From assembly GCF_003018255.1 (NCBI RefSeq), contig NZ_CP027440.1: a stretch of DNA of 64,000 nt, one strand, 5' to 3'. The DNA is from Escherichia coli (GTDB lineage: Bacteria; Pseudomonadota; Gammaproteobacteria; Enterobacterales; Enterobacteriaceae). Below are positions 3,021 to 41,520 of the stretch, piece by piece. Positions within the stretch are counted from its first letter, which is position 1; each line of letters begins with the position of its first letter. The notes below the pieces were generated by a model. It had not been told where the DNA came from, searched no databases, and was given only the letters and a program-made list of their open reading frames with translations. The position numbers were made by a program, and so were the translations under genes.

Positions 3021-4676
3021 ATGGATCGTAGACGATTTATTAAAGGTTCAATGGCTATGGCCGCCGTGTGCGGTACCAGCGGCATTGCTTCTCTTTTTTC
3101 TCAGGCGGCATTCGCGGCAGATTCTGATATTGCCGACGGGCAAACCCAACGTTTTGACTTCTCCATTCTACAGTCAATGGCGCACGACTTAGCGCAAACA
3201 GCGTGGCGTGGTGCGCCGCGTCCGTTACCTGACACTCTGGCGACAATGACGCCGCAGGCTTATAACAGTATTCAATACGACGCCGAAAAATCGCTCTGGC
3301 ATAACGTTGAGAACCGTCAACTGGACGCTCAGTTCTTCCATATGGGAATGGGATTCCGTCGCCGCGTTCGTATGTTTTCTGTAGATCCAGCAACACATCT
3401 GGCGCGTGAAATTCACTTTCGCCCGGAGTTGTTCAAATACAACGATGCGGGTGTTGATACCAAACAATTAGAAGGGCAAAGTGATCTCGGTTTTGCCGGT
3501 TTTCGCGTGTTTAAAGCCCCCGAACTGGCGCGCCGTGATGTCGTATCATTCCTCGGCGCGAGTTATTTCCGCGCGGTTGATGATACATATCAATACGGTT
3601 TGTCGGCCCGCGGCCTGGCGATCGACACTTACACCGACAGTAAAGAAGAGTTCCCCGACTTTACTGACTTCTGGTTTGATACGGTAAAACCGGGGGCAAC
3701 CACCTTTACCGTTTATGCGTTGCTCGATAGCGCCAGCATTACTGGTGCCTATAAGTTCACTATCCATTGTGAGAAAAGTCAGGTGATTATGGATGTGGAA
3801 AATCACCTGTATGCGCGCAAAGACATTAAACAGCTGGGCATTGCGCCGATGACCAGCATGTTCAGCTGCGGTACTAATGAACGTCGGATGTGCGACACCA
3901 TTCATCCGCAAATCCATGACTCTGATCGTTTGTCCATGTGGCGGGGCAATGGCGAGTGGATTTGTCGTCCGCTGAATAATCCGCAAAAATTGCAGTTCAA
4001 TGCTTACACCGACAACAACCCGAAAGGGTTTGGTTTATTGCAACTGGATCGTGATTTCTCCCATTATCAGGACATTATGGGCTGGTATAACAAACGCCCA
4101 AGTCTGTGGGTGGAGCCGCGTAACAAGTGGGGTAAGGGCACCATCGGCCTGATGGAAATCCCAACAACGGGCGAAACGCTGGATAACATTGTCTGCTTCT
4201 GGCAGCCAGAAAAAGCGGTAAAAGCGGGTGATGAGTTTGCATTCCAGTATCGTCTGTACTGGAGTGCGCAACCGCCTGTTCATTGCCCATTAGCGCGCGT
4301 TATGGCGACGCGTACCGGCATGGGCGGTTTCCCGGAAGGTTGGGCGCCAGGTGAACACTATCCCGAAAAATGGGCGCGACGTTTTGCCGTCGATTTCGTT
4401 GGTGGTGATCTGAAAGCTGCCGCGCCAAAAGGCATTGAGCCGGTGATTACGCTTTCCAGTGGGGAAGCGAAACAAATCGAAATTCTCTATATTGAACCCA
4501 TTGATGGTTATCGTATTCAGTTTGACTGGTATCCGACTTCGGACTCCACTGATCCGGTCGATATGCGGATGTATCTGCGTTGTCAGGGCGACGCTATCAG
4601 TGAAACATGGCTGTATCAGTATTTCCCGCCAGCGCCGGATAAACGTCAGTATGTTGATGACCGCGTGATGAGTTAA
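3021..4676 (+). CDS. opgD: Glucans biosynthesis protein D (periplasmic, Tat-exported)
   Basis: 551-aa ORF; N-terminal twin-arginine signal [10 protein letters not shown]...AFA; recognised as OpgD/MdoD. Confidence 0.9.
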
Positions 4677-4815
4677 TCGTTTTTTCTTCGGCATCTTCTT
4701 CGGGAGGTGCCGTCTGGTTAAACACGATCCCGCTCGCATTTTTCCCTAAGTTAAATGAGTAATCTGATGGTGTGTATTTCAGATACACCTTGTCAGCCAC
4801 TAACAGGGAGTGCGT

Positions 4816-5040
4816 ATGTTTCCAGAATACCGAGATTTAATATCCCGTCTGAAAAACGAAAATCCTCGCTTTATGTCCTTGTTCGATAAACACAATAAAC
4901 TTGATCATGAAATTGCCAGAAAGGAAGGTTCCGACGGTCGAGGGTACAATGCGGAAGTGGTCCGCATGAAAAAACAAAAGCTACAGTTAAAAGATGAGAT
5001 GCTCAAAATCCTGCAGCAGGTGAGCGTCAAAGAGGTGTAA
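4816..5040 (+). CDS. ydcH: DUF465-family small protein
   Basis: ORF 4810..5040 (GTG); ATG at 4816 preceded by GGGAG gives 74 aa. Confidence 0.7.
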   Translation: MFPEYRDLISRLKNENPRFMSLFDKHNKLDHEIARKEGSDGRGYNAEVVRMKKQKLQLKDEMLKILQQVSVKEV

Positions 5041-5048
5041 ACTTTCCT

Positions 5049-5073
5049 AAGCCGCCAGCCAGGCGGCTTTTTT
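5049..5073 (+). terminator. Rho-independent terminator downstream of ydcH
   Basis: Hairpin aagccgcc-agcc-aggcggctt followed by T-run. Confidence 0.5.
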
Positions 5074-5102
5074 AACAACTGCATGGATTGACTGGAGATA
5101 AG

Positions 5103-5642
5103 ATGACTGAAACGATAAAAGTAAGTGAATCACTTGAATTACATGCTGTTGCAGAAAGTCATGTCACACCTCTTTATCAGTTAATCTGTAAAAATAGAAC
5201 CTGGTTACAGCAGTCGCTAAACTGGCCGCAGTTTGTTCAAAGTGAAGAGGACACGCGAAAAACGGTGCAGGGTAATGTGATGTTGCATCAACGCGGCTAT
5301 GCCAAAATGTTCATGATTTTCAAAGAAGATGAACTTATCGGCGTTATCTCGTTTAATCGTATTGAACCACTGAATAAAACCGCTGAAATCGGCTACTGGC
5401 TGGACGAATCTCATCAGGGGCAGGGGATCATTTCTCAGGCGCTGCAGGCATTGATTCATCATTACGCTCAGTCTGGTGAACTTAGACGCTTCGTGATCAA
5501 ATGTCGGGTGGACAATGCGCAAAGCAACCAGGTCGCTTTGCGCAATGGTTTTATCCTTGAAGGTTGTCTGAAACAGGCTGAGTTCCTGAATGATGCCTAT
5601 GATGATGTGAACTTATACGCGCGTATTATCGATTCACAATAA
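5103..5642 (+). CDS. rimL: Ribosomal protein L7/L12 serine N-acetyltransferase (GNAT)
   Basis: ORF 5088..5642 (TTG); ATG at 5103 with GGAG 5 nt upstream gives 179 aa; GNAT motifs. Confidence 0.8.
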
Positions 5643-25436: not shown

Positions 25437-27539
25437 TTACTCAAATCGCCACGCAATATTCATGCCGACACCATAATTTCGCCCGGGCGCAGGTTCGTAA
25501 TATCGCCCGTTTGACTCATTGACAATGACAGAGCCAACGTATTCTTTATCGAATAAATTATCGACACGACCAAATAAATCCACAGTTAAATTGTGGTAAT
25601 TGTATTTATACCCGGTGAATAAGCCGACGAGAGTATAAGACGGCGCTTTGGCCGTATTTTCATCATCTGCCATAATATCGCCCATATAACGCGCTTCCGT
25701 ACCTGCATACCAGCCATCTTCCGGTACATAACCTATCGACGCAAAGCCCATATTACGGGCGATCCCTGGCATCCGGTTACCGTTACAATCCTGTTCATTG
25801 CAAACATTGCTGCGATAGGTCGCATCAAGCCAGGTCCAGGACGCTTTTACGCGAAAATCTCCCGCGAAACGTTGATCCCATGCCAGTTCAGCGCCTTGAC
25901 GACGGGTCTTTCCGGCATTTTTGTAAGTCGTACGCCCACCGCTACTGCTATCGACAACAATTTCATCATCGGTGTCGGTCTGGAACAATGCGAGACTAAG
26001 CAGCCCATCACCAATACGCGTTTTACTGCCGATCTCAATTGTATCGTTGGTGGAGGGTTTTAAACCAAAGTTCATACCGCTTTGCCCATCAGCGCGATAA
26101 GACAGCTCATTAATCGTCGGCGTTTCAAAACCGCGCCCGGCTGCCAGATAGACATTCCAGGCATCGGTCATTGCATATTTTAACGATCCGGCTGGTAGCC
26201 ATTTGTGATAACTGGCATCACCGCTGTCGTCGCCGTTACCCGGAGTAACGTAATGATCATTGGAATCAAACCACACAGAGCTGTAGCGCACGCCAGCATC
26301 CAGCGAAAGTTTGTCGGTCAGTTGCCACTGGGTTTGTAAATAGGGATCGACGTTCCACATCAAATTGCGTTCGTCGCGGCGCAACTCACCTTTTTGCCCG
26401 TATTCCGGCACGCCGCGATTCAGGCGGAAGTTATTGTAACCCTTGCGGTTTTCACTCATGTTTTCGTAGTTCAGGCCGGTTGTGAACGTGACTGGAACGC
26501 CCAATTCACCACGGTGTGTCCAGCGGCTGTCTATCCCCTGGTAATGGCGTTGCAGGGTAATCACGCCGCCCGCATGTGACGGGTTAAGTTGCGGGGACAT
26601 GGGGATTGACTGGTACTGGGTCGTTTCTCGCTCTCCGGCATACATCATTACACTCATATCATCTTGCGCGCTCAGGCTACGTTCATAGCGCAACCCAGCC
26701 TGAGTTTGCTTGATGGTTTTTCGCGTGTCGTACTGTTCTGCACGGGGCGCTTGTTGTGGATTCGCCTTCCATTCTGCTTCGGTTAGCCCACCTGGGTCAT
26801 CTGCTTTGATATCCACACTATTGAAAATCAGGCTTAATTTGCTGGCGTCATCAATGCGAACGCCCAGTTTGGCATTGGCTAAATTTTTCTGTGCGCCACT
26901 ATGATCACGATAGCCGTGGGTCGTAAAGCGCGTGGTTGAGACGGTGTAATCGACATCGCCTGGCTGTGTGCCGTCTCCCGTTGCGCCCGTTGCTTTCAGC
27001 CCATAGCGCCAGCTGCCAAAACTGCCGTAGTAACTACTGGCTTCAATGGTTGGTGGCTGTTGTCCGGTCTGGGTGATGACATTCATTACACCGCCAGACG
27101 CGTTGCCATACAGAGCAGAGAAGGGGCCACGCAGCACTTCCACATTTTGCACACTGCTTAAATCGATATTGGATGTCTGCCCTTGTCCGTCGGGCATGGT
27201 AGCGGGAATACCGTCAACATACAGGCGAATACCGCGAATTCCGTAAGTGGAGCGGGAGCCAAATCCGCGAATCGACAGCTGTAAATCTTGCGCATAGTTC
27301 TGCCGGTTTTGTACCTGCAAACCAGGCACGCCAGTCAGTGATTCAGACAAGTTAATGCGCGGTGTTGCCAGGCGCATCTCCTCGCCATCCACCACGCTCA
27401 CGGCTGCTGGGGTATCCAGTTCTGAAATCACCTGCGGCGCGGCACTGACAATCATGGTCTGTTCATCAGCGGCAAAAACGGTGGGGGAAAGGACAAGCAG
27501 CGCGGGAAAAACGGTCTGTCGGACGGAAAAAATCTTCAT
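25437..27539 (-). CDS. yncD: TonB-dependent outer membrane receptor
   Basis: 700-aa ORF; signal peptide, C-terminal terminal aromatic (…AWRFE); beta-barrel receptor. Confidence 0.9.
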   Translation of the reverse strand: MKIFSVRQTVFPALLVLSPTVFAADEQTMIVSAAPQVISELDTPAAVSVVDGEEMRLATPRINLSESLTGVPGLQVQNRQNYAQDLQLSIRGFGSRSTYGIRGIRLYVDGIPATMPDGQGQTSNIDLSSVQNVEVLRGPFSALYGNASGGVMNVITQTGQQPPTIEASSYYGSFGSWRYGLKATGATGDGTQPGDVDYTVSTTRFTTHGYRDHSGAQKNLANAKLGVRIDDASKLSLIFNSVDIKADDPGGLTEAEWKANPQQAPRAEQYDTRKTIKQTQAGLRYERSLSAQDDMSVMMYAGERETTQYQSIPMSPQLNPSHAGGVITLQRHYQGIDSRWTHRGELGVPVTFTTGLNYENMSENRKGYNNFRLNRGVPEYGQKGELRRDERNLMWNVDPYLQTQWQLTDKLSLDAGVRYSSVWFDSNDHYVTPGNGDDSGDASYHKWLPAGSLKYAMTDAWNVYLAAGRGFETPTINELSYRADGQSGMNFGLKPSTNDTIEIGSKTRIGDGLLSLALFQTDTDDEIVVDSSSGGRTTYKNAGKTRRQGAELAWDQRFAGDFRVKASWTWLDATYRSNVCNEQDCNGNRMPGIARNMGFASIGYVPEDGWYAGTEARYMGDIMADDENTAKAPSYTLVGLFTGYKYNYHNLTVDLFGRVDNLFDKEYVGSVIVNESNGRYYEPAPGRNYGVGMNIAWRFE

Positions 27540-27674
27540 GAAAAAAGCCAGGTTAAGAATGGGAAAACACCGTCATGGTAATAAAATTGTAAATTTATGG
27601 AAAACGAAACGGCACGATATGTTAAGTAATTGAGAAAATTGTAGTCGTAACGGCAAGAAATGCTCCACATTTGA

Positions 27675-27695
27675 GAAAATAATGATTACCATTCC
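27675..27695. promoter_or_regulatory. Candidate Fur box (aaaataatgattaccattc) in the yncD/yncE divergent promoter region
   Basis: Match to GATAATGATAATCATTATC-type consensus read from sequence; about 90 bp upstream of yncE start. Confidence 0.4.
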
Positions 27696-27780
27696 CATTT
27701 ATAACAAGAGCGTAACGATGATTACGCTTAGCGAAGCATTGTGAAGCAGCAAAAATATCGGTTCATCAAAGGGAGTCGTC

Positions 27781-28842
27781 ATGCATTTACGTCATCTGTT
27801 TTCATCGCGCCTGCGTGGTTCATTACTGTTAGGTTCATTGCTTGTTGCTTCATCATTCAGTACGCAGGCCGCAGAAGAAATGCTGCGTAAAGCGGTAGGT
27901 AAAGGTGCCTACGAAATGGCTTATAGCCAGCAAGAAAACGCGCTGTGGCTCGCCACTTCGCAAAGCCGCAAACTGGATAAAGGCGGCGTGGTTTATCGTC
28001 TTGATCCGGTTACTCTGGAAGTGACGCAGGCGATCCATAACGATCTCAAGCCGTTTGGTGCTACCATCAATAACACGACTCAGACGTTGTGGTTTGGTAA
28101 CACTGTAAACAGCGCGGTCACGGCGATAGATGCCAAAACGGGCGAAGTGAAAGGCCGTCTGGTGCTGGATGATCGTAAGCGCACTGAAGAGGTGCGCCCG
28201 CTGCAACCGCGTGAGCTGGTGGCAGACGATGCCACGAACACCGTTTACATCAGTGGTATTGGTAAAGAGAGCGTGATTTGGGTCGTTGATGGCGAGAATA
28301 TCAAACTGAAAACCGCCATCCAGAACACCGGTAAAATGAGTACCGGTTTAGCGCTGGATAGCAAAGGCAAACGTCTTTACACCACTAACGCTGACGGCGA
28401 ATTGATTACCATCGACACCGCCGACAATAAAATCCTCAGCCGTAAAAAGCTGCTGGATGACGGCAAAGAGCACTTCTTTATCAACATCAGCCTTGATACC
28501 GCAAGGCAGCGTGCATTTATCACCGACTCTAAAGCGGCAGAAGTGTTAGTGGTCGATACCCGTAATGGCAATATTCTGGCGAAGGTTGCGGCACCGGAAT
28601 CACTGGCTGTGCTGTTTAACCCCGCGCGTAATGAAGCCTACGTGACGCATCGTCAGGCAGGTAAAGTCAGTGTGATTGACGCGAAAAGCTATAAAGTGGT
28701 GAAAACGTTCGATACGCCGACTCATCCGAACAGCCTGGCACTGTCTGCCGATGGCAAAACGCTGTATGTCAGTGTGAAACAAAAATCCACTAAACAGCAG
28801 GAAGCTACCCAGCCGGACGATGTGATTCGTATTGCGCTGTAA
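27781..28842 (+). CDS. yncE: Periplasmic beta-propeller protein
   Basis: 353-aa ORF with signal peptide; recognised as YncE. Confidence 0.85.
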   Translation: MHLRHLFSSRLRGSLLLGSLLVASSFSTQAAEEMLRKAVGKGAYEMAYSQQENALWLATSQSRKLDKGGVVYRLDPVTLEVTQAIHNDLKPFGATINNTTQTLWFGNTVNSAVTAIDAKTGEVKGRLVLDDRKRTEEVRPLQPRELVADDATNTVYISGIGKESVIWVVDGENIKLKTAIQNTGKMSTGLALDSKGKRLYTTNADGELITIDTADNKILSRKKLLDDGKEHFFINISLDTARQRAFITDSKAAEVLVVDTRNGNILAKVAAPESLAVLFNPARNEAYVTHRQAGKVSVIDAKSYKVVKTFDTPTHPNSLALSADGKTLYVSVKQKSTKQQEATQPDDVIRIAL

Positions 28843-28922
28843 TAGATATGGCGAGGGTGAAAATGGAGAGACTTGCCTGACTTTTATCACGCCGTATCCG
28901 GCACCTTCGTCAGTAATTTGAA

Positions 28923-28950
28923 TTTGCCCGGCACGTAGCCGGGCAATTTT
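28923..28950. terminator. Hairpin ttgcccggc-acgt-agccgggcaa + TTTT between convergent yncE and ansP
   Basis: Inverted repeat plus T-run read from sequence. Confidence 0.5.
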
Positions 28951-28954
28951 GCAA

Positions 28955-30454
28955 TTAGCTCGCCGTTTCAGGCTTAAACACAATTTCCTGTTTTTCTTCA
29001 TCTTCCTCGACGACTGGCGCAGTGCTGTGAATTTCAGCAACGCGTTTGCGCACACCAAACCAGCCTATAACCAGCAGAATACCGATAATCGGCAGCGCCG
29101 CGATAGTATAAGTCCCGTTCGGGTAATCGAACGCCATCAGCACAAGGACGCTCAGCAAAAACAGTAATGTCAGCCAGGAAGTGAAGGGCGCGCCAGGCAG
29201 TTTAAAACTGACATCCGCTGCTTTGCCTTCTTTAATCGCTTTACGCAGGCGCATCTGGCACACGATGATAAACGCCCATGAAGCGATGATTCCCAGCGAC
29301 GCGAAGTTCAACACAATCTCAAATACGCGCGACGGCACCAGATAGTTGAGGAATACGCCGACGACATACACAACCAGTGTCGCCAGAATCCCGGCATACG
29401 GCACATGCTGACGACTCATTTTCGCCATAAAACTCGGTGCGGAACCGCCCATCGCCATCGAGCGCAGAATACGTCCGGTGCAGTACAGACCTGAGTTCAG
29501 GCTGGAGAGGGCAGCGGTCAGCACCACAATGTTCATAATGCTGCCGATGTACGGCACACCCAGTTTAGAGAAAAACGTCACGAACGGACTTTGCCCCGCC
29601 TGATACGCGCTCCACGGCAATAACATAACCAGCAACACCACGGAGCCGACGTAAAACAGGCCAATACGCCAAATCACACTGTTAATCGCTTTAGGCACCA
29701 TGGTCTGCGGATCTTTACATTCTCCGGCAGCTGTACCCACCATTTCAATGGAGGCAAAAGCAAACACTACGCCCTGAATCAACACCAGCGCAGGTAGCAA
29801 ACCGTGGGGGAAGAAGCCGCCGTTATCGGTAATTAAATGAAAGCCAGTGGTGTTGCCATCCAGCGGCTGACCACTACCGAGGAACACTGTACCCACGACC
29901 AAAAAGGTCACAATGGCGAGCACTTTAATAAGCGCAAACCAGAACTCCATCTCGGCAAACCATTTCACACCAATCATATTCATGGTGCCAACGATGGTCA
30001 GCGCAGCGAGCGCAAAGACCCACTGCGGTACACCACCAAATGCGCCCCAGTAATGCATATACAGTGCAACGGCGGTAATATCGACAATCCCCGTCATCGC
30101 CCAGTTGATGAAGTACATCCAGCCTGCAACATAAGCGGCTTTCTCACCCAAAAACTCACGGGCATAAGAGACAAAACTGCCACTGGAAGGGCGGTGTAGC
30201 ACCAGCTCACCCAATGCACGCAGAATAAAAAACGAAAACAAGCCGCAGATTAAATAGACCAGTGCCAGTGCTGGCCCCGCCATTTGCAGTCGGGCTCCCG
30301 CGCCTAAAAACAAACCCGTACCAATCGCGCCGCCAATGGCGATCATCTGCACCTGGCGATTGCCCATCGCTTTGTGATACCCCTCTTCGTGGGCATTAAG
30401 CCAGCGGCGTTTCGCGGCGTGCTGATCTGAAGTGTCGGTGTCGTGTTTACTCAT
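28955..30454 (-). CDS. ansP: L-asparagine permease (APC family amino acid transporter)
   Basis: ORF 28955..30505; start set at ATG 30454 (MSKHDTDTSDQHAAKRRWLNAHEEGYHKAMGNRQVQMIAIGG) giving 499 aa. Confidence 0.9.
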   Translation of the reverse strand: MSKHDTDTSDQHAAKRRWLNAHEEGYHKAMGNRQVQMIAIGGAIGTGLFLGAGARLQMAGPALALVYLICGLFSFFILRALGELVLHRPSSGSFVSYAREFLGEKAAYVAGWMYFINWAMTGIVDITAVALYMHYWGAFGGVPQWVFALAALTIVGTMNMIGVKWFAEMEFWFALIKVLAIVTFLVVGTVFLGSGQPLDGNTTGFHLITDNGGFFPHGLLPALVLIQGVVFAFASIEMVGTAAGECKDPQTMVPKAINSVIWRIGLFYVGSVVLLVMLLPWSAYQAGQSPFVTFFSKLGVPYIGSIMNIVVLTAALSSLNSGLYCTGRILRSMAMGGSAPSFMAKMSRQHVPYAGILATLVVYVVGVFLNYLVPSRVFEIVLNFASLGIIASWAFIIVCQMRLRKAIKEGKAADVSFKLPGAPFTSWLTLLFLLSVLVLMAFDYPNGTYTIAALPIIGILLVIGWFGVRKRVAEIHSTAPVVEEDEEKQEIVFKPETAS

Positions 30455-30720
30455 TGCTCTCCCTGATTGCTTTAATGAAAAAGTCATATAAGTTGCCATG
30501 AACAATGTTTATTCATCCTGGCGATGATAGTTATCACCATTATTCTTTATGGGTATAAAACTATCGGCGCAGCATCCTACCCGTTATCGATAAACGATGC
30601 AAAACATCCCCTTACAATTCTGAAGGGGATTCATACAACTGACGAAAAAATGACAAATACTTTTGCTGGTTAACCTGTGTGCTGTCCTAGACTTAATCTT
30701 TAAAAGATTGTGAGGGGCAT

Positions 30721-31338
30721 ATGATTAAGGTGCATGGCGTACCCGGATGGGGCACTACAATCAGTGAGATGATGCTAACACTGGCTGATATTCCTTATCA
30801 GTTCGTTGATGTCAGTGGTTTTGACCACGAGGGAACTTCACGCGAGTTATTGAAAACCCTGAACCCGTTGTGTCAGATTCCGACACTGGCGCTGGAAAAT
30901 GACGAGATTATGACGGAGACAGCGGCGATTGCATTGATGGTTCTCGATCGTCGCCCGGACCTTGCGCCACCGGTTGGGCGCGCCGAACGTCAGCAGTTTC
31001 AACGGCTATTGGTCTGGCTGGTTGCTAATGTCTATCCAACATTCACTTTCGCCGATTACCCTGAGCGTTGGGCTCCTGACGCACCCGAACAGTTAAAGAA
31101 TAATGTTATTGAATATCGTAAATCGCTTTATATCTGGCTGAATTCACAATTGACCGCTGAACCTTATGCGTTTGGTGAGCAACTAACGCTGGTGGACTGT
31201 TATCTTTGCACCATGCGCACATGGGGGCCGGGGCATGAATGGTTTCACGATAATGCGCAGAATATCAGCTCGATCGCTGAAGCTGTATGTCAGTTACCGA
31301 AATTACAAGAAGTATTAAAAAGGAATGAAATTATTTGA
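30721..31338 (+). CDS. yncG: Glutathione S-transferase-like protein
   Basis: 205-aa ORF; GST N- and C-domain-like. Confidence 0.8.
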   Translation: MIKVHGVPGWGTTISEMMLTLADIPYQFVDVSGFDHEGTSRELLKTLNPLCQIPTLALENDEIMTETAAIALMVLDRRPDLAPPVGRAERQQFQRLLVWLVANVYPTFTFADYPERWAPDAPEQLKNNVIEYRKSLYIWLNSQLTAEPYAFGEQLTLVDCYLCTMRTWGPGHEWFHDNAQNISSIAEAVCQLPKLQEVLKRNEII

Positions 31339-31413
31339 ATGGGATACCAGAAGATTATGTTATTTATTATTCAGTAACTTTATCCACAATGATGGACGTA
31401 ATTAATTAGATTC

Positions 31414-31626
31414 ATGTTATGTTTTTTAATTTATATCACTCTCCCTTTCATTCAGCTTGTTTATTTCATTTCCTCTGAAAAGAAACTAACTATTCACATT
31501 GTGCAGATGTTTCAGTTGTTATCACAGGCATTCTATAATCTCAAAATGTTTTTAATGATGGATATGCTCGGAGTTGGAGATGCAATTAATATTAATACAA
31601 ATAAAAATATCCGGCAGGTATGCTAA
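31414..31626 (+). CDS. yncH: Small hydrophobic protein of unknown function
   Basis: 70-aa AT-rich ORF; recognised as YncH. Confidence 0.65.
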   Translation: MLCFLIYITLPFIQLVYFISSEKKLTIHIVQMFQLLSQAFYNLKMFLMMDMLGVGDAININTNKNIRQVC

Positions 31627-32461
31627 AAGGATAAATGGCGTTCTCTGTATTTATTCGCGATTATCTGTAGGACAAATATGGAGCGCTTGATGAGTCAGAG
31701 CTAAAACAGCAATTGATAAATAAACATGTTGATTTATTCAAGAAAATGGATGTATTTCAAATATTGATTCTTAATATAACCTAATCAATAGATTATCACG
31801 TGAGAGCTGCACATTATTGGAGGGGCAGGGGAAAACACCATTTTGGGAACAATGAATCAGGTACTCTTACCACTGAAGCAAGATCATCCGGGCACCAGGT
31901 GGTGGTGCAGTGCTTTGGAAATGGTCCCCTCGGGGGAGTTGTCATTATTTTCTATGCTATTTGCTTATGATATTCATCAGGTGAATTTAATAAATTCCTA
32001 ATTTTAAATATCCACTATTAAGCCAGTGTTTAACGGCGTTAAGATGGCAATGTGCAGATCATGTTATCAGAGTGGGGCGGTAGCGTATATTCCTTATACA
32101 AACCATCATTCATTTCAATGATTGTTATTGAATTATTTATTGTTGTGAATAAAAAGACATTATGAATATTGGTTTGACTTTGCATATCAGGTTTTTTATT
32201 ATTCGCTCTAATGTACGAGCCTGTCGTGAATAACGTCGAGAACCCATCCGTTGCGTTTGTGATTATTTTGTTGACTAAACAGACACCCGTTTCTCTGAAG
32301 TAAAATCCCATACTAAATCATCACATAACCATGACATTTTTCTGATATTCCCCGGTAACGCCAGATGTCGACTCGCTTATCTCATCCGCCCGACATGTTG
32401 TACATGCAATATGTGCGGATTATTATTCATTTTCACGGAGGTTGCTATGTCAACCGGATTA

Positions 32462-33753
32462 CCAGGGAAAGATCACGTAACGCTGCTTTTTTGCACTAAA
32501 TAATTCGCATTTTATGTTTAAAAATTGAGATATTCCTCATTACCTGAAGCTGTTTTTTATTGCGTATACATGTTCAAATACTCCTTACATAATTAAGGAG
32601 AACAAAATGGAACTTAAAAAATTGATGGAACATATTTCTGTTATCCCCGATTACAGACAAGCCTGGAAAGTGGAACATAAATTGTCGGATATTCTACTGT
32701 TGACTATTTGTGCCGTTATTTCTGGTGCAGAAGGCTGGGAAGATATAGAGGATTTTGGGGAAACACATCTCGATTTTTTGAAGCAATATGGTGATTTTGA
32801 AAATGGTATTCCTGTTCACGATACCATTGCCAGAGTTGTATCCTGTATCAGTCCTGCAAAATTTCACGAGTGCTTTATTAACTGGATGCGTGACTGCCAT
32901 TCTTCAGATGATAAAGACGTTATTGCAATTGATGGAAAAACGCTCCGGCATTCTTATGACAAGAGTCGCCGCAGGGGAGCGATTCATGTCATTAGTGCGT
33001 TCTCAACAATGCACAGTCTGGTCATCGGACAGATCAGGACGGATGAGAAATCCAATGAGATCACAGCTATCCCAGAACTTCTTAACATGATGGATATTAA
33101 AGGAAAAATCATCACAACTGATGCGATGGGTTGCCAGAAAGATATCGCAGATAAGATACAAAAACAGGGCGGTGATTATTTATTCGCTGTAAAAGGAAAT
33201 CAGGGGCGGCTTAATAAAGCCTTTGAGGAAAATTTCCCACTGAAAGAATTAAATAATCCAGAGCATGACAGTTACGCAATTAGTGAAAAAAGTCACGGCA
33301 GAGAAGAAATCCGTCTTCATATTGTTTGCGATGTCCCTGATGAACTTATTGATTTCATGTTTGAATGGAAAGGTCTGAAGAAATTATGCGTGGCAGTCTC
33401 CTTTCGGTCAATAATAGCAGAACAAAAGAAAGAGCCAGAAATGACGGTCAGATATTATATCAGTTCTGCTGATTTAACCGCAGAGAAGTTCGCCACAGCA
33501 ATCCGAAACCACTGGCACGTGGAGAATAAGCTGCACTGGCGTCTGGACGTGGTAATGAATGAAGACGACTGCAAAATAAGAAGAGGAAATGCAGCAGAAT
33601 TATTTTCAGGGATACGGCACATCGCTATTAATATTTTAACGAATGATAATGTATTCAAGGCAGGGTTAAGACGTAAGATGCGAAAAGCAGCCATGGACAG
33701 AAACTACCTGGCGTCAGTCCTTGCGGGGAGCGGGCTTTCGTAATCTTTCCCTG
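32462..33753 (+). mobile_element. H-repeat element (ISAs1-family insertion sequence), copy 1, about 1292 bp with imperfect terminal inverted repeats cagggaaagatca ... taatctttccctg
   Basis: Near-identical to copy 2 at 39125..40415; ends defined by where the two copies lose similarity to each other; IRs read from sequence. Confidence 0.8.
32607..33743 (+). CDS. H-repeat-associated protein / ISAs1-family transposase (378 aa)
   Basis: 378-aa ORF with AAGGAG site; about 97 percent identical to the ORF at 39269..40405; recognised as YdcC/YhhI-type H-rpt protein. Confidence 0.85.
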
Positions 33754-34359
33754 AACACCGAGGTGCTGAATAACCGCACCACGGATGTGATAAACAACCA
33801 TGCTGAGACCATCGGCAACAATCAGGTGATTGCGGTTACCAACAATCAGATACAGACGGTGGGCGTTAACCAGATAGAGACGGTGGGCAGTAACCAGATC
33901 ATTAAAGTGGGCTCTGTTCAGGTGGAAACGATTGGACTTGTTCGTGCGCTGACCGTGGGCGTGGCGTATCAGACGACGGTAGGTGGCATTATGAACACCT
34001 CGGTGGCCCTGATGCAGTCCTCGCAGATCGGTTTGCATAAATCGTTGATGGTCGGGCTGGGTTATGACGTCAAAGTCGGAAATAACGTTACCTTCACCGT
34101 TGGTAAAACGAAAAAGGATGATACCGGACAGACCGCGATTTACTCCGCCGGTGAGCATCTGGAACTCTGCTGTGGTAAGGCAAGGCTGGTGCTGACTAAG
34201 GACGGACAAATTTTTCTCAACGGCACAAAAATTCATTTGCAGGGTAAGGAGCAGGTTAATGGTGACTCACTGTTGATTAACTGGAACTGTGCAGCCTCGA
34301 AATCCCCACCGAAGACCCCTGATGAAAAGCAGGATACGCCGGATATGAGAGAGTACTGA
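33754..34359 (+). pseudogene. VgrG (T6SS spike protein) C-terminal fragment, 5'-truncated at the H-repeat boundary
   Basis: Reading frame open from the H-rpt right end; product carries VgrG C-terminal repeat motifs (VINNHAETIGNNQVIAVTNNQIQTVGVNQIETVGSNQ...). Confidence 0.7.
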
Positions 34360-34425
34360 TCCCGTACCTGTTCGGTATTCAGTAACAAACAAGCATTAAA
34401 AATAAACAGAAGAAGGAATTGAATC

Positions 34426-37400
34426 ATGAGCGGAAAACCAGCGGCGCGTCAGGGAGATATGACTCAGTATGGCGGTCCCATTGTCCAGGGTTCGGCAGGT
34501 GTAAGAATTGGCGCGCCCACCGGCGTGGCGTGCTCGGTGTGTCCGGGCGGGATGACTTCGGGCAACCCGGTAAATCCGCTGCTGGGGGCGAAGGTGCTGC
34601 CCGGCGAGACGGACCTTGCGCTGCCCGGCCCGCTGCCGTTCATTCTCTCCCGCACCTACAGCAGCTACCGGACGAAGACGCCTGCGCCGGTGGGGATTTT
34701 TGGCCCCGGCTGGAAAGCGCCTTCTGATATCCGCTTACAGATACGCGATGATGCACTGGTACTCAACGACAACGGCGGACGGAGCATTCACTTTGAGCCG
34801 CTGCTGCCGGGTGAGGCGGTGTACAGCCGCAGCGAGTCAATGTGGCTGGTGCGCGGTGGTAAGGCAGCGCAGCCGGACGGCCACACGCTGGGGCGGCTGT
34901 GGGGGGCGCTGCCGCCGGATATCCGGTTAAGCCCGCATCTTTACCTGGCGACCAGCAGCGCACAGGGACCGTGGTGGATACTGGGGTGGTCAGAGCGGGT
35001 GCCGGGTGCTGAGGACGTACTGCCAGCGCCGCTGCCGCCGTACCGGGTGCTGACGGGGCTGGCGGACCGCTTCGGGCGGACGCTGACGTACCGGCGTGAG
35101 GCCGCCGGCGACCTGGCCGGGGAAATCACCGGCGTGACGGACGGTGCCGGGCGTGAGTTCCGTCTGGTGCTGACCACGCAGGCGCAGCGTGCGGAAGAGG
35201 CCCGCACCTCTTCGCTATCTTCTTCTGACCGTCCCCGCCCTCTCTCAGTCTCAGCGTTCCCCGACACACTGCCCGGTACCGAATACGGCCCCGACAGGGG
35301 TATCCGCCTTTCGGCGGTGTGGCTGATGCACGACCCGGCATACCCGGAGAGCCTGCCCGGTGCGCCACTGGTGCGGTACACGTATACGGAAGCCGGTGAA
35401 CTGCTGGCGGTATATGACCGCAGCAATACGCAGGTGCGCGCTTTCACGTATGACGCGCAGCACCCGGGCCGGATGGTGGCGCACCGTTACGCGGGAAGGC
35501 CGGAGATGCGCTACCGCTACGACGATGCGGGGCGGGTGGTGGAGCAGCTGAACCCGGCAGGCCTGAGTTACCGCTACCAGTATGAGCAGGACCGCATCAC
35601 CGTCACCGACAGCCTGAACCGGCGTGAGGTGCTGCATACAGAAGGCGGGGCCGGGCTGAAGCGGGTGGTGAAAAAAGAACTGGCGGACGGCAGCGTCACG
35701 CACAGCGGGTATGACGCGGCAGGAAGGCTCACGGCACAGACGGACGCGGCGGGACGGCGGACAGAGTACGGCCTGAATGTGGTGTCCGGCGATATCACGG
35801 ATATCACCACGCCGGACGGGCGGGAGACGAAATTTTACTATAACGACGGGAACCAGTTAACGGCGGTGGTGTACCCGGACGGGCTGGAGAGCAGCCGGGC
35901 ATATGATGAGCTGGACAGACTGGTATCGGAGACATCGCGCAGCGGGGAGACAGTACGCTACCGCTACGATGACGTGCACAGTGAGTTACCGGCGACGACA
36001 ACGGATGCGACGGGCAGCACCCGGCAGATGACCTGGAGCCGCTACGGGCAGTTGCTGGCCTTCACCGACTGCTCGGGCTACCAGACCCGCTATGAATACG
36101 ACCGCTTCGGCCAGATGACGGCGGTTCACCGCGAGGAAGGTATCAGCCTTTACCGCCACTATGACAACCGTGGCCGGTTAACCTCGGTGAAAGACGCACA
36201 GGGCCGTGAAACGCAGTATGAGTACAACGCCGCAGGCGACCTGACTGCCGTTATCACCCCGGACGGCAACCGGAGCGAGACACAGTACGATGCGTGGGGA
36301 AAGGCGGTCAGCACCACGCAGGGCGGGCTGACGCGCAGTATGGAGTACGATGCTGCCGGACGTGTCATCAGCCTGACCAACGAGAACGGCAGTCACAGCG
36401 ACTTCAGCTACGATGCGCTGGACCGCCTGGTACAGCAGGGCGGCTTTGACGGGCGGACGCAACGTTATCATTATGACCTGACCGGAAAACTCACGCAGAG
36501 TGAAGATGAGGGGCTTGTCATCCTCTGGTACTACGATGAATCGGACCGTATCACTCACCGCACGGTGAACGGCGAACCGGCAGAGCAGTGGCAGTATGAT
36601 GGCCACGGCTGGCTGAGAGAAATCAGCCACCTGAGCGAAGGCCACCGTGTTGCCGTCCACTATGGCTACGACGATAAGGGCCGTCTGACCGGGGAGCGCC
36701 AGACGGTGGAGAACCCGGAGACGGGGGAACTGCTGTGGCAGCATGAGACGAAACAGGCATACAACGAACAGGGGCTGGCAAACCGCGTCACGCCGGACAG
36801 CCTGCCGCCGGTGGAGTGGCTGGCCTATGGCAGCGGTTATCTGGCGGGCATGAAGCTGGGCGGGACGCCGCTGCTGGAGTACATGCGGGACAGACTGCAC
36901 CGGGAGACGGTGCGCAGCTTCGGCAGCATGGCAGGCAATACAGCCGCATATGAACTGACCAGCACTTACACCCCCGCAGGCCAGTTACAGAGCCGGCACC
37001 TGAACAGCCTGGTGTTTGATTGTGACTATAACTGGAATGACAACGGCGACCTGATGCGCATCAGCGGCCCGCGACAGACGCGGGAATACGGCTACAGCGC
37101 CACGGGCAGGCTGGAGAGCGTGCGCACCCTCGCACCGGACCTGGACATCCGCATCCCGTATGCCACCGACCCGGCGGGCAACCGGCTGCCGGACCCGGAG
37201 CTGCACCCGGACAGTACACTCACAGTGTGGCCGGATAACCGAATCACCGAAGACGCGCACTACCTGTACCGTTACGATGAATACGGCAGGCTGGCGGAGA
37301 AGACGGACCGCATCCCGGCGGGTGTGATACGGACGGACGACGAGCGGACCCACCACTACCACTACGACAGCCAGCACCGCCTGGTGTTCTATACGCGGAT

Positions 37401-38586
37401 ACAGCATGGCGAGCCACTGGTCGAGAGCCGCTACCTTTACGACCCGCTGGGCCGCCGGACGGGTAAACGGGTATGGCGGCGGGAGCGTGACCTGACGGGG
37501 TGGATGTCGCTGTCGCGTAAACCGGAGGTGACGTGGTACGGCTGGGACGGCGACCACCTGACGACGGTGCAGACCGACACCACGCGTATCCAGACGGTAT
37601 ATCAGCCGGGGAGCTTCGCGCCGCTCATCCGCATCGAAACAGACAACGGTGAGCGGGAGAAAGCGCAGCGCCGCAGCCTGGCGGAGAAGCTGCAGCAGGA
37701 AGGGAGCGAGGACGGGCACGGCGTGGTATTTCCGGCTGAACTGGTGCGGCTGCTGGACAGACTGGAGGAAGAAATCCGGGCAGACCGCGTGAGCAGTGAA
37801 AGCCGGGCGTGGCTTGCGCAGTGCGGGCTGACGGTGGAGCAACTGGAAAAACAGGTGGAGCCGGAATACACACCGGCGCGAAAAGTTCATCTTTACCACT
37901 GCGACCACCGGGGACTGCCGCTGGCGCTTATCAGCGAAGACGGCAATACGGTGTGGAGCGCGGAGTATGATGAATGGGGAAACCTGCTTAATGAGGAGAA
38001 CCCGCATCATGTGTATCAGTCATACCGTCTGCCGGGGCAGCAGCATGATGAGGAGTCGGGGCTGTACTACAACCGGAACCGGTACTACGATCCGTTGCAG
38101 GGGCGGTATATCATCCAGGACCCGATAGGGCTGGCGGGGGGAATAAACCCGTACAGTTATGTTATGAACAATCCTGTGCAATGGATTGATCCATTGGGAT
38201 TAGCTCATACTTCAGGAAAATGGAAGGACTGTGGTAAAGGTTGTCGAATCCGAATAGATGGCGATGCTGTTGGTGACGGAAGACATTTGCATTGGGAGTG
38301 TAAAAATGGGAGTGGTGTAATGGGGGAATTTGGAGGTATGTCCCATGGTGAGGATTACTCATCAGCACCAAATAGCATTAAGAAATGTGCAAAAAAATAT
38401 GGTTTCGAGCCAGAACCAAGTAAAGATCTGTCATGCAAAACCTCCGGGCTATCAACTACTGATGCGGCTCTTGCAACTGGTGCTACAATTGGCGCAGGGT
38501 ATGTTATATATAGAGTGATTCGATTTATACCTTCACTTGCACCACCTCTTTGGTGGTCAATACCTGCAAACGTTGTTACTCCATGA
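34426..38586 (+). CDS. rhsE: Rhs-family polymorphic toxin with N-terminal PAAR motif, YD-repeat core and divergent C-terminal domain (1386 aa)
   Basis: Literal PAAR at residues 5-8 ([11 protein letters not shown]); numerous YD repeats; conserved core end DPIGLAGG...DPLGL at 38119-38202; sharp GC-rich to AT-rich switch after about 38160. Confidence 0.9.
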
Positions 38587-38612
38587 TTAAAACGGATAAT
38601 GGAGATTATATA

Positions 38613-38957
38613 ATGAGCGATTTTGACATTGTGAGTTCAATTGACTGGCATGATGGGGTTTTGTTAGAAGTAAAAACGACATTCAAAGAATCTCATTTTA
38701 ACATGACGTTATTTATTGACATTTATAAAAATGAGAACATTAGGGAAAAAATGATAGTTGAATTTTCTGATGTAGATGATTTAGTGTTCGCTATGGATTC
38801 TGCTGAGTTAATCGATAATCACAAGTCAGGTAATATAAGTAATGGGTATGTAAAGAAATTAAAAAACAAAAGGATATATAAATTTTTTCTTTATTTTTCT
38901 GATGGCTTATTAAGCATGACATTTAAAAATTTACAATTAATAAAACCATTAGAGTAA
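38613..38957 (+). CDS. Putative Rhs immunity protein (small AT-rich ORF downstream of the Rhs C-terminal domain)
   Basis: ORF 38550..38957; ATG 38613 preceded by GGAG at 8-nt spacing (114 aa); alternative ATG 38583 overlaps the rhsE stop as ATGA (124 aa); position and AT-richness typical of Rhs immunity genes. Confidence 0.55.
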   Translation: MSDFDIVSSIDWHDGVLLEVKTTFKESHFNMTLFIDIYKNENIREKMIVEFSDVDDLVFAMDSAELIDNHKSGNISNGYVKKLKNKRIYKFFLYFSDGLLSMTFKNLQLIKPLE

Positions 38958-39124
38958 CCAAATAAAAGGACTGGAGGAATCAGGGGAAGATCATTAAAGT
39001 TGTGATTATCATCACAACTTTAATCTTGGTTTCACCTTGTTGATTTGATTAAAATTTAATCGCCAAATAATTAAATATATTAGAAAAGGACGTCTGGTGA
39101 ACATTCAAAGTCTTCTTGAGCATA

Positions 39125-40415
39125 CAGGGAAAGATCATCAGAAGTACACTTTTTGTACTAAATAATTCGCATTTTATGTTTAAAAATTGAGATATTCCTC
39201 ATTACCTAAAGCTGTTTTTTATTGCTTATACATGATCAAATACTCCTTACATAATTAAGGAGAACAAAATGGAACTTAAAAAATTGATGGGACATATTTC
39301 TATTATCCCCGATTACAGACAAACCTGGAAAGTGGAACATAAATTGTCAGATATTCTACTGTTGATTATTAGTGCCGTTATTTCTGGTGCAGAAGGCTGG
39401 GAAGATATAGAGGATTTTGGGGAAACACATCTCGATTTTTTAAAGCAATATGGTGATTTTAAAAATGGTATTCCTGTTCACGATACCATTGCCAGAGTTG
39501 TATCCTGTATCAGTCCTGCAAAATTTCACGAGTGCTTTATTAACTGGATGCGTGACTGCCATTCTTCAGATGATAAAGACGTCATTGCAATTGATGGAAA
39601 AACGCTCCGGCATTCTTATGACAAGAGTCGTCGCAGGGGAGCGATTCATGTCATTAGTGCATTCTCAACAATGCACAGTCTGGTCATCGGACAGATCAGG
39701 ACGGATGAGAAATCTAATGAGATTACAGCTATCCCTGAACTTCTTAACATGCTGGACATTAAAGGAAAAATTATCACAACTGATGCGATGGGTTGCCAGA
39801 AAGATATTGCAGAGAAGATACAAAAACAGGGAGGTGATTATTTATTCTCTGTAAAAGGAAACCCGGGGCGGCTGAATAAAGCTTTTGAGGAAAAATTTCC
39901 ACTGAAAGAATTAAATAATCCAGAGCATGACAGTTACGCAATTAGTGAAAAGAGTCACGGCAGAGAAGAAATCCGTCTTCACATTGTTTGCGATGTCCCT
40001 GATGAACTTATTGATTTCACGTTTGAATGGAAAGGTCTGAAGAAATTATGCGTGGCAGTCTCCTTTCGGTCAATAATAGCAGAACAAAAGAAAGAGCCAG
40101 AAATGACGGTCAGATATTATATCAGTTCTGCTGATTTAACCGCAGAGATGTTCGCCACAGCAATCCGAAACCACTGGCACGTGGAGAATAAGCTGCACTG
40201 GCGTCTGGACGTGGTAATGAATGAAGACGACTGCAAAATAAGAAGAGGAAACGCCGCAGAATTATTTTCAGGGATACGGCACATCGCTATTAATATTTTA
40301 ACGAATGATAAGGTATTCAAGGCAGGGTTAAGACGTAAGATGCGAAAAGCAGCCATGGACAAAAACTATCTGGCGTCAGTCCTTGCGGGGAGCGGGCTTT
40401 CGTAATCTTTCCCTG
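39125..40415 (+). mobile_element. H-repeat element (ISAs1-family insertion sequence), copy 2, about 1291 bp, same orientation as copy 1
   Basis: Near-identical to 32462..33753 including terminal inverted repeats. Confidence 0.8.
39269..40405 (+). CDS. H-repeat-associated protein / ISAs1-family transposase (378 aa)
   Basis: 378-aa ORF with AAGGAG site; paralogue of 32607..33743. Confidence 0.85.
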
Positions 40416-40419
40416 TATT

Positions 40420-40707
40420 GTGAAATCATCAAGAGTACATATAGATCATGATAAAGATATTTTTGATGGCCTTGACAAAATCTTGGCTTTTTCCGATAAA
40501 AATAAGCATGAGTATTTTTTATATATAAAGGCATATTGGCTCAGTTTATACTTTTGTGAAATTTCTCAGAAAGTGAGAGAAAGAGATAAGTTGTCATTTT
40601 ATTATGATGAATTTTCTGTCCGATTTCCTAATGTTGTCCTATATCCGACATACTTCCAATTGCATGGTTTAGCATCTGAAAAGTCATTGTTAATTCGAGA
40701 CGCTTGA
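40420..40707 (+). other. AT-rich reading frame open from the H-repeat right boundary (95 codons); probable 3' remnant of a gene truncated by the insertion
   Basis: Frame is open right at the element end; no recognisable product. Confidence 0.3.
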
Positions 40708-40986
40708 TTGTCCACTATATCAAAATAGTCATGCCCCGGAATTTTCTCACATTAGTCCATAAGGGATTCAATTTTTGTAATTGCACCCTGAAAAAACCGC
40801 AAAAGTGCTTTGTCGTGTCCTGTCGCAATGAAGTCTGGTGTTAATGTTATACTTTAATTGATATTTAAAGAGATGGCTTCTTTGCTTATATAAATACCCA
40901 TCTATTCTTTCTCAAAAATATTGGCTCAGATTAACCATGTTCCACGCAAACAATTTTCAAACATTCATCAATAGATAAGGAATTCC

Positions 40987-41454
40987 ATGATTATACGACC
41001 AGTCAAACCTTCAGATGTTGAACCATTACTGGATATGCTGCTTGCCAGTGGACAATTTAATCAAGATGGCCTTCATCATGTACAAAAAACACTAACACAT
41101 TATTTCTCAGGTCAATCTGCCGATTTATGGTTTAGTGCAGAACACTTAGGACTGGCAGGGATTGCCTATTGCGCTCCTGAAGTGATGACAAATGATGTCT
41201 GGAATTTATTAATGCACTGGATCAGTCCTTCCCATCAGCGCCAGGGAGTGGGACATCTGCTGATTAACGAAATAGAAAAGGAGCTCACAATTAAACAGGC
41301 AAGACTACTTTTAGTAGAGACCTCCAGCTATGTCGATTTTAGTGCCGCCCGCGCATTTTATACATAACAGGGCTTTATCAATGAAGCTATAATACGCAAT
41401 TACTATGATGTTGGTGAGGATAAATTAATCTTCACTAAAAATATGCAATCGTGA
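40987..41454 (+). pseudogene. GNAT-family N-acetyltransferase interrupted by an in-frame TAA at 41365-41367
   Basis: ORF 40987..41367 (126 aa) continues in the same frame for 28 more codons to TGA 41452-41454; sequence around the stop reads AFYT*QGF versus the GNAT consensus FY.K.GF. Confidence 0.6.
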
Positions 41455-41520
41455 GATAAAATATGCTTTTAACTCATATTGAAACATTGCTTAAGCAACT
41501 TGGTTGCTGCATATGATTCT

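Follow-up and report, generated by a model that had tools for sequence, protein, structure and literature searches.

The two H-repeats around the rhs module of an Escherichia coli RhsE locus are very probably separate insertions and not a composite unit

The two H-repeats that lie in the same orientation on either side of a toxin module in the analyzed window (the whole stretch of 64,000 nucleotides from E. coli contig NZ_CP027440.1) very probably represent two separate insertions, and not a composite unit. The locus is E. coli RhsE, which extends from yncH to yddH. The elements appear to have been acquired at different times, since the downstream element (copy 2) stands without the upstream one (copy 1) in thousands of genomes. 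Both the H-repeat and its association with Rhs elements were described decades ago, and copy 2 corresponds to an already annotated K-12 gene, ydcC. An H-repeat downstream of the rhs tip and immunity gene is reportedly the classical Rhs-element layout (Hill and colleagues, 1990s), whereas copy 1 occupies an unusual place upstream of rhs, within vgrG, and belongs to a rare allele. The finding is thus real but ordinary, with little significance beyond annotation, and its useful points are local.

Both elements are E. coli H-repeats, ISEc1-like members of the ISAs1 family. Copy 1 (32463–33753, plus strand) and copy 2 (39125–40415, plus strand) are each 1291 bp long and differ at 50 of 1291 positions in a base-by-base alignment containing no indels (96.1% identity). 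Ten of the 50 mismatches cluster within 12 nt of the element (positions 14–25), and the remainder of the alignment is 96.9% identical. According to ISfinder, members of the ISAs1 family are approximately 1.2–1.5 kb long and have terminal inverted repeats starting with CAGGG; both copies agree with this description in length and in their CAGGG ends. The terminal inverted repeats of both copies (CAGGGAAAGATCA / TAATCTTTCCCTG) are complementary at 12 of 13 positions, and in copy 1 the inverted repeat reaches 20/25. Each copy contains an intact transposase ORF of 378 aa on the plus strand (32607–33743 in copy 1, 39269–40405 in copy 2), and the two proteins differ at 15 residues. Both match the NCBIfam model of ISAs1 family transposases NF033564 far above its cutoff of 70 bits (413.5 bits, E = 5e-124, for copy 1; 405.6 bits, E = 1e-121, for copy 2), and the copy 1 protein also matches the Pfam domains DDE_Tnp_1_assoc (PF13808) and DDE_Tnp_1 (PF01609). 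The first-pass annotation, which had described two same-orientation elements of about 97% identity, each with a transposase-like ORF and imperfect inverted repeats, around a segment of about 5.4 kb, was therefore accurate in copies, sizes and arrangement, and only the start of copy 1 has to be moved, from 32462 to 32463.

The K-12 H-repeats (ydcC, yhhI, and ybfL/ybfD) share with the window copies the length of 1291 bp, the CAGGGAAAGAT ends and a single 378-aa DDE transposase, and the window copies are 95.7–96.5% identical to K-12 ydcC, yhhI, and H-rptC. Two types of subterminal 12-mer, type 1 in copy 1 and type 2 in copy 2, are both present in K-12. The type-2 12-mer was considered as a mark of ydcC being an immobile relic and was rejected as such, as K-12 yhhI and one plasmid copy share this type.

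Between the copies (33754–39124, 5371 bp) lie what is left of vgrG, a PAAR-Rhs toxin gene and a presumed immunity gene. The remnant (33754–34359, plus strand) retains the last 201 codons of vgrG in the original frame and lacks the N-terminal 501 codons; the equivalent stretch is annotated in RefSeq as a partial gp5 trimerisation-domain pseudogene. The rhs gene (34426–38586, plus strand) encodes a 1386-aa protein in which a Tox-WTIP toxin tip follows the RHS core at the C-terminus; the protein matches NCBIfam NF041261 (2705 bits) and carries the precomputed Pfam domains DUF6531, RHS_repeat, RHS, and Tox-WTIP. It is followed by a 114-aa ORF (38613–38957, plus strand; RefSeq WP_001279013.1 in sequences L001–L003), which has no NCBIfam match and is presumed to be the immunity gene from its position 3' of the toxin tip. 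The segment thus has the order characteristic of Rhs elements, namely an RHS core, a variable C-terminal tip and a small immunity ORF. An intact cognate vgrG is missing upstream, where all that is left of the gene is 16 nt from its start and 201 codons from its end. A scan of 31900–34500 for promoters and terminators gave counts that are not above those in shuffled sequence, which says nothing firm on rhs expression, and the same scan detected no plus-strand terminator within copy 1.

The junctions of copy 1 were resolved by comparison with sequence L003, in which vgrG is intact (702 codons). The window aligns with L003 up to position 32462 (L003 4337, vgrG nucleotide 16) and again from 33752/33754 (L003 5823/5825), copy 1 standing in place of 1485–1487 bp (approximately 1.49 kb) of the intact gene. 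The first 16 nt of vgrG (ATGTCAACCGGATTAC; 32447–32462, plus strand; L003 4322–4337) survive to the left of the element, a detail that extends the earlier reading of copy 1 as truncating vgrG. The element is flanked by ...ccggattac on the left and aacaccgag... on the right, with no direct repeat between these flanks, and the target-site duplication is absent because approximately 1.49 kb of vgrG was replaced. The left and right junctions occur together in the same three of 5,426 complete genomes, and the exact copy 1 transposase was found in at least 23 assemblies, in every one of them downstream of yncH; a metagenome scan with a 30-mer across the left junction returned 0 matches. Strains that carry the allele include DETEC-S792 and JNE112863. 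Beyond the three carriers, no potential donor at least 99% identical to copy 1 was found; the best copies there reach 98.8%. A precursor, that is, an H-repeat in vgrG with a duplication and no deletion, was found in none of the 5,426 complete genomes, so we infer the order of insertion followed by deletion.

Copy 2 occupies the chromosomal position of K-12 ydcC and is present at the locus without copy 1 in at least 2,400 of 5,426 complete genomes. The junction of K-12 type between ydcC and pptA was found in 2,365 genomes, and the left junction of window type in 355. The flanks of copy 2 (...ttgagcata on the left, tattgtgaa... on the right) contain no direct repeat, and the first-pass statement that neither copy lies between matching repeats is borne out by the flanking bases. 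On the left side, L003 contains 35 bp that the window lacks, directly at the end of the element; on the right side, a contig of another strain (L009) contains 1,393 such bp, again flush with the end. Relative to these strains, the flanks of copy 2 read as deletion endpoints that coincide with its ends, and five different left flanks were observed among the window, L003, HS, EC596, and K-12. The right end abuts, as had been noticed, a truncated gene (40416–40707, plus strand; ORF 40420–40707); only its 3' portion remains here, and on L009 the longer gene stands complete, although frameshifted. An unoccupied copy 2 site, searched as 400 bp per side joined, was found in 0 of 5,426 genomes at coverage of at least 80%; copy 2 presumably arrived by simple insertion. 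Between copy 2 and K-12 ydcC there are 45 differences, H-repeat copies differ from one another by 2–5% with no clean orthology pattern, and it is possible that the resident copy was replaced or gene-converted.

A third H-repeat provides the duplication that both window copies lack. In two sister genomes (AP045072 and AP045067) it occupies a 10-bp target, GATCATGTTA, which is empty in the window (32057–32066) and is perfectly duplicated around the insertion. In the sister copy on L002, the 10-mer stands on both sides of a 1291-bp element, whose flanks match the window at 100% identity. This third copy implies that the H-repeat normally makes a target-site duplication (approximately 8–10 bp), and its lack in the window copies is explained by the deletions, flush with their ends, that comparison with L003 and L009 brings out. 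According to one genome paper (PMC3032704), transposition of the H-repeat "has not been observed", whereas in the sister genomes the third copy carries a clean 10-bp duplication; H-repeats are not discussed in a paper on Rhs evolution (PMC2935791). The occupied and unoccupied sites with identical flanks constitute clean comparative evidence, at the level of sequence, that the H-repeat appears to transpose still. Among 72,556 plasmid records, only 25 contain an H-repeat, and several of these are in fact chromosomes under a wrong label; three of the plasmid copies were examined for further duplications and proved either to lack a duplication or to be chromosomal fragments.

Taken together with the presumed order of events, separate insertion would give the following history. 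Copy 2 would have been resident at RhsE for a long time, and copy 1 would have arrived later, in one allele. Copy 1 would have entered vgrG, and the adjoining ~1.49 kb of this gene would have been lost either because the IS promoted an adjacent deletion or because another copy inserted nearby and the two then recombined; both routes would take away one of the two 10-bp target repeats. The original flanks of copy 2 would have been lost on both sides via deletions ending exactly at its termini. The outcome would be a toxin–immunity pair located between two direct 1.3-kb repeats, with the Rhs toxin probably deprived of its own VgrG spike. The allele has probably spread across E. coli lineages by ordinary homologous recombination in flanking core genes. 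In L014, L016, and L018, the core genes at 26000–31000 differ by approximately 2.7%, and the regions 31000–34500 and 38000–41500 are nearly identical; the recombined tract would extend from about 31000 to about 41500.

That the pair might mediate deletion, duplication or mobilisation of the enclosed segment, as the first-pass annotation had proposed, is plausible as a generic possibility and is not borne out for this particular pair, for which neither a recombinant nor a second location was found. A working composite transposon, in which the two outer ends (left in copy 1, right in copy 2) would be used together to move the truncated vgrG, rhs and immunity genes, is highly improbable. The window resembles Tn10- and Tn5-type transposons in that two copies of one IS surround cargo, with the outer ends and both transposase genes intact, and the sister copy indicates that the element family is currently mobile. 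However, the window copies are direct, not inverted, and 3.9% divergent; copy 2 occurs alone in thousands of genomes, pointing to acquisition at different times; and the left junction is an internal deletion in vgrG, not an insertion site. No duplication surrounds the whole unit, the left flank of which ends in ...ACCGGATTAC and the right flank of which begins with TATTGTGAAA. The 7,953-bp unit was found at the RhsE locus alone (3/5,426 complete genomes, at least 23 assemblies and 0 metagenome contigs), with no second location in any of these sets, and H-repeats are almost missing from real plasmids. Even less credible, to the point of being nearly negligible, is an origin of both copies from one resident H-repeat by unequal crossing-over or segmental duplication. 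Their shared orientation and spacing of 6.7 kb would suit such a local event, but the 50/1291 differences, the distinct subterminal 12-mers and the lack of any co-duplicated flanking sequence argue against it, as does the greater similarity of copy 1 to H-repeats elsewhere (98.8%) than to copy 2. Of the findings that the first-pass annotation had named as speaking against a unit, independent insertions are indicated by the genomes compared, duplications belonging to each copy are absent, and the enclosed segment is not invariant; it varies via mosaicism of the rhs core among carriers of the same allele, not via H-repeats.

A different role for the pair, as an intermediate toward module loss, is possible but unlikely. 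Under this explanation, RecA-dependent recombination between the H-repeats deletes the 5.4-kb segment, leaves one hybrid element and so produces genomes that have no module. Such genomes exist: in approximately 53 of them (HS, ATCC 8739, PCN061, and others), the yncH-side flank runs straight into the left end of the ydcC H-repeat, and the whole vgrG–rhs–immunity module is gone. EC596 and a fragment of CP054253 provide further single-H-repeat variants, and three direct H-repeat copies have built up in the JNE genomes. The longest uninterrupted match between the window copies is 128 bp, a length sufficient for RecA, but their divergence of 3.9% weighs against the exchange, since it reduces recombination under active mismatch repair. 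The predicted product, with the left junction of copy 1 and without its right junction, was found in none of the 5,426 complete genomes, so these include no single-copy recombinant of this pair. Moreover, the HS-type deletion does not derive from copy 1: it starts at 32397/32398, 65 bp upstream of the copy 1 site, and the type-2 left end of ydcC is still in place, which a one-ended adjacent deletion explains equally well. Mosaic analysis of the single H-repeat of CP054253 as a hybrid of an upstream copy and ydcC revealed no clear breakpoint, the copies differing by 2–5% at scattered positions.

Separate insertion of the two copies thus remains the preferred reading, and at the RhsE locus H-repeats bound many independent deletions. 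One plausible route to the flush deletions is that another H-repeat inserts and the direct copies then recombine, and the window has the kind of layout predicted for an intermediate on this route. A broader proposal, in which the H-repeat is, rather than a fossil, a currently active IS whose repeated insertion in one orientation, together with flush deletions, drives turnover of vgrG–Rhs modules at RhsE (inactivation, loss and perhaps exchange), is doubtful and is put forward only tentatively; if true, the window would represent an intermediate stage of this process. The RhsE deletions resemble IS-associated adjacent deletions in that their endpoints are flush with IS termini. They also resemble the decay of T6SS in E. 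coli ST131 and ST410, where ISEc12 was inserted into tssM and deletions occurred in T6SS loci (PMC10711316), since in both cases an IS hits a T6SS component and adjoining DNA is lost. The RhsE case differs in involving an H-repeat of the ISAs1 family, an orphan vgrG–rhs island and not a core T6SS cluster, and a mechanism that is so far a proposed one.

Downstream of the immunity gene, the 13-mer CAGGGGAAGATCA (38981–38993, plus strand) resembles the left end of the H-repeat at 12 of 13 positions and, judged from this similarity, may be a relic of an older H-repeat end; by our estimate, approximately 0.08 such matches are expected by chance per whole window.

The gene order yncE, ansP, yncG, yncH, copy 1, truncated vgrG, rhs, immunity, copy 2, GNAT gene, yddH, nhoA identifies the site as the E. 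coli RhsE locus. Here two H-repeats of 1291 bp lie on the plus strand (copy 1, 32463-33753; copy 2, 39125-40415), and a repeat search together with a base-by-base alignment bore out the two-copy layout described in the first-pass annotation, its start coordinate alone being off by one base. The alignment, which that annotation had proposed, gave 96.1% identity with 50 mismatches and no indels, and the longest perfect runs common to the copies reach up to 128 bp. One-fifth of the mismatches (10/50) cluster in 12 nt at element positions 14-25, a patch that reads CGTAACGCTGCT in copy 1 and TCAGAAGTACAC in copy 2. The terminal inverted repeats of both copies are 13 bp long (CAGGGAAAGATCA / TAATCTTTCCCTG) and match at 12 of 13 positions, and the patch of copy 1 lengthens this complementarity to 20/25. 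Each copy encodes an intact 378-aa transposase recognized by the NCBIfam ISAs1 transposase model (32607-33743, E = 5e-124, and 39269-40405, E = 1e-121); there are 15 residue differences between the two, and the Pfam domains DDE_Tnp_1_assoc and DDE_Tnp_1 were also found in that of copy 1. Comparison of the flanks of each copy revealed no direct repeats.

Both copies are 95.7-96.5% identical to ydcC, yhhI, and H-rptC of K-12 and are ordinary members of the H-repeat/ISEc1 group of the ISAs1 family. The subterminal patch, located just inside the left inverted repeat (32476-32487 and 39138-39149), occurs in two forms: type 1 in copy 1, K-12 H-rptC, and a third copy carried by two sister genomes, and type 2 in all examined ydcC, K-12 yhhI, and one plasmid copy. 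K-12 thus already has both types. In the classical layout of Rhs elements, an H-repeat lies downstream of the rhs tip and the immunity gene. The two-copy arrangement is real and explained, but of a known kind.

Copy 1 is a rare insertion associated with a deletion in vgrG. In strain 19KM1776, which lacks copy 1, vgrG is intact (2109 bp), and its alignment with the window ends at 32462 (vgrG nt 16) and resumes at 33752/33754 (vgrG nt 1502/1504). Relative to this strain, copy 1 stands in place of 1485-1487 bp of vgrG (a shared TG makes the endpoint ambiguous by 2 bp) and leaves the start codon plus 13 bases on its left and codons 502-702 on its right. Since the junction replaces vgrG bases, and such junctions cannot carry a target duplication, the lack of one at copy 1 is accounted for. 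The junction could have arisen by insertion followed by an adjacent deletion, or by two insertions and subsequent recombination between them; these routes are indistinguishable, because the collection of 5,426 complete genomes contains no precursor. The exact left junction was found in 3 of these genomes (CP116067, AP045067, and AP045072), and the exact right junction in the same three, with copy 1 being 100% identical across them, whereas the closest other H-repeat in the collection is 98.8% identical. A transposase exactly matching that of copy 1 occurs in at least 23 assemblies, in every case at the RhsE locus.

The resident H-repeat is copy 2, whose flanks are secondary on both sides. At this position K-12 has ydcC, an H-repeat gene annotated as 'H repeat-associated putative transposase', and none of the 5,426 genomes has an unoccupied site. 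The K-12-type ydcC-pptA junction is present in 2,365 of these genomes, the window-type left junction in 355, and the window-type right junction in 48. The same left terminus is abutted by five different sequences (in the window, 19KM1776, HS, EC596, and K-12), and 19KM1776 has 35 extra bp flush against the IS end that the window lacks. On the right side, 1,393 bp separate the IS end from the sequence starting at 40416 in an SRA-derived contig; they include the 5' part of a gene whose 3' part is the window ORF 40420-40707, while in K-12 and EC596 pptA lies against the right end. Flush flank deletions would be expected to remove a target duplication, hence its lack at copy 2.

The third H-repeat (1291 bp), found in AP045072 and AP045067, lies 396 bp upstream of copy 1 (4068-5358 in the sister-genome sequence L002) and has the 10-mer GATCATGTTA (window 32057-32066) on either side, with flanks 100% identical to the window. 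Given these identical flanks and the duplicated 10-mer, the window shows the empty target of a recent transposition. Target duplications in the ISAs1 family are 8-10 bp long (ISfinder); the 10-bp duplication agrees with this range and makes the missing duplications of the window copies meaningful. The third copy thus provides comparative evidence of continuing H-repeat transposition, which is of small interest in itself, given that the E. coli W genome paper (PMC3032704) says of such transposition that it 'has not been observed'.

The pair does not qualify as a composite transposon: the unit has no flanking duplication, its copies were acquired separately, and it was found at no second location among chromosomes and metagenome contigs. 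The H-repeat itself, the sole plasmid query, matches 25 of 72,556 plasmid records. Among these are several chromosomes mislabelled as plasmids, and several of the matching PLSDB entries are 4.8-4.9 Mb long. A deletion between copies 1 and 2 is expected to retain the left junction of copy 1 without the right one, and such recombinants were absent from all 5,426 complete genomes; a search for single-copy recombinants had been proposed in the first-pass annotation. Its general idea that direct repeats can mediate deletion, duplication, or mobilisation is plausible for the locus, where H-repeat-bounded deletions occur, but finds no support in this pair, which has neither a recombinant nor a second site. 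The copy-1 allele itself has passed between lineages through homologous recombination: three compared sequences (L014, L016, and L018) show ~2.7% divergence from the window in the core genes at 26000-31000, and the region from ~31000 to ~41500 is nearly identical, save mosaic differences within the rhs core.

In ~53 complete genomes (HS, ATCC 8739, PCN061, and others) the yncH-side flank runs up to window position 32397 and then straight into the left end of ydcC (39125), and the entire vgrG-rhs-immunity module is missing. EC596 keeps vgrG nt 1-199 alone before ydcC, K-12 has a distinct deletion from 32379 into the rhs core with no IS boundary, and in CP054253 a single H-repeat separates a divergent ansP-side flank from the pptA end. 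The HS-type deletion does not derive from copy 1, because it keeps the type-2 left end of ydcC and starts 65 bp upstream of the copy 1 site. Either of two mechanisms fits these deletions: a one-ended deletion promoted by the IS, or insertion of a further copy and then recombination between copies in direct orientation. The latter needs intermediates with more than one direct copy, which is what the window (two copies) and the JNE genomes AP045072 and AP045067 (three) look like. Identical stretches as long as 128 bp suffice for RecA, although the 3.9% divergence would reduce the rate. The most far-reaching reading, in which the H-repeat actively drives turnover at vgrG-Rhs islands, seems unlikely.

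Several further variants were observed at the locus. In HS, the H-repeat next to the deletion junction (L004 5136) is itself truncated at position 921, where sequence from just upstream of pptA follows. The 252-kb CP054253.1 record, labelled 'plasmid pBone4_4', contains the chromosomal RhsE locus of a divergent lineage, with ansP, an H-repeat, yddH, and nhoA; the left end of this single type 1 H-repeat lies approximately at the third-copy site, and the right end is fused to the pptA 3' end. Directly upstream of ydcC, K-12 also carries yncI (L006 6587-7640; ~66% identical), the relic of a second and much older H-repeat, so direct-tandem H-repeats at RhsE also occur outside the window's allele.

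The segment between the copies (5371 bp) starts with the 3' remnant of vgrG (its last 201 codons, 33754-34359), followed by the gene for an RHS core protein of 1386 aa with a Tox-WTIP tip (34426-38586; NF041261, 2705 bits) and by a 114-aa ORF presumed from its position to encode immunity (38613-38957). Among genomes with the same copy-1 allele and near-identical flanks, differences concentrate in the rhs core at 34750-37750 (>100 mismatches; 1386 vs. 1389 aa), which suggests exchange with other rhs genes of the same genome. The 13-mer CAGGGGAAGATCA at 38981-38993, 24 nt past the immunity stop codon, agrees with the left end of the H-repeat in 12 of 13 bases and may be a relic of an older H-repeat end; it is followed by a hairpin (AAAGTTGTGAT / ATCACAACTTT). 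The interval between the H-repeat and yddH has alternative forms, with either pptA or a ~200-aa ORF with or without the small GNAT acetyltransferase gene (40987-41367), most of which lies in a 463-bp stretch (40830-41292) missing from 19KM1776, the SRA-derived contig, and L010.
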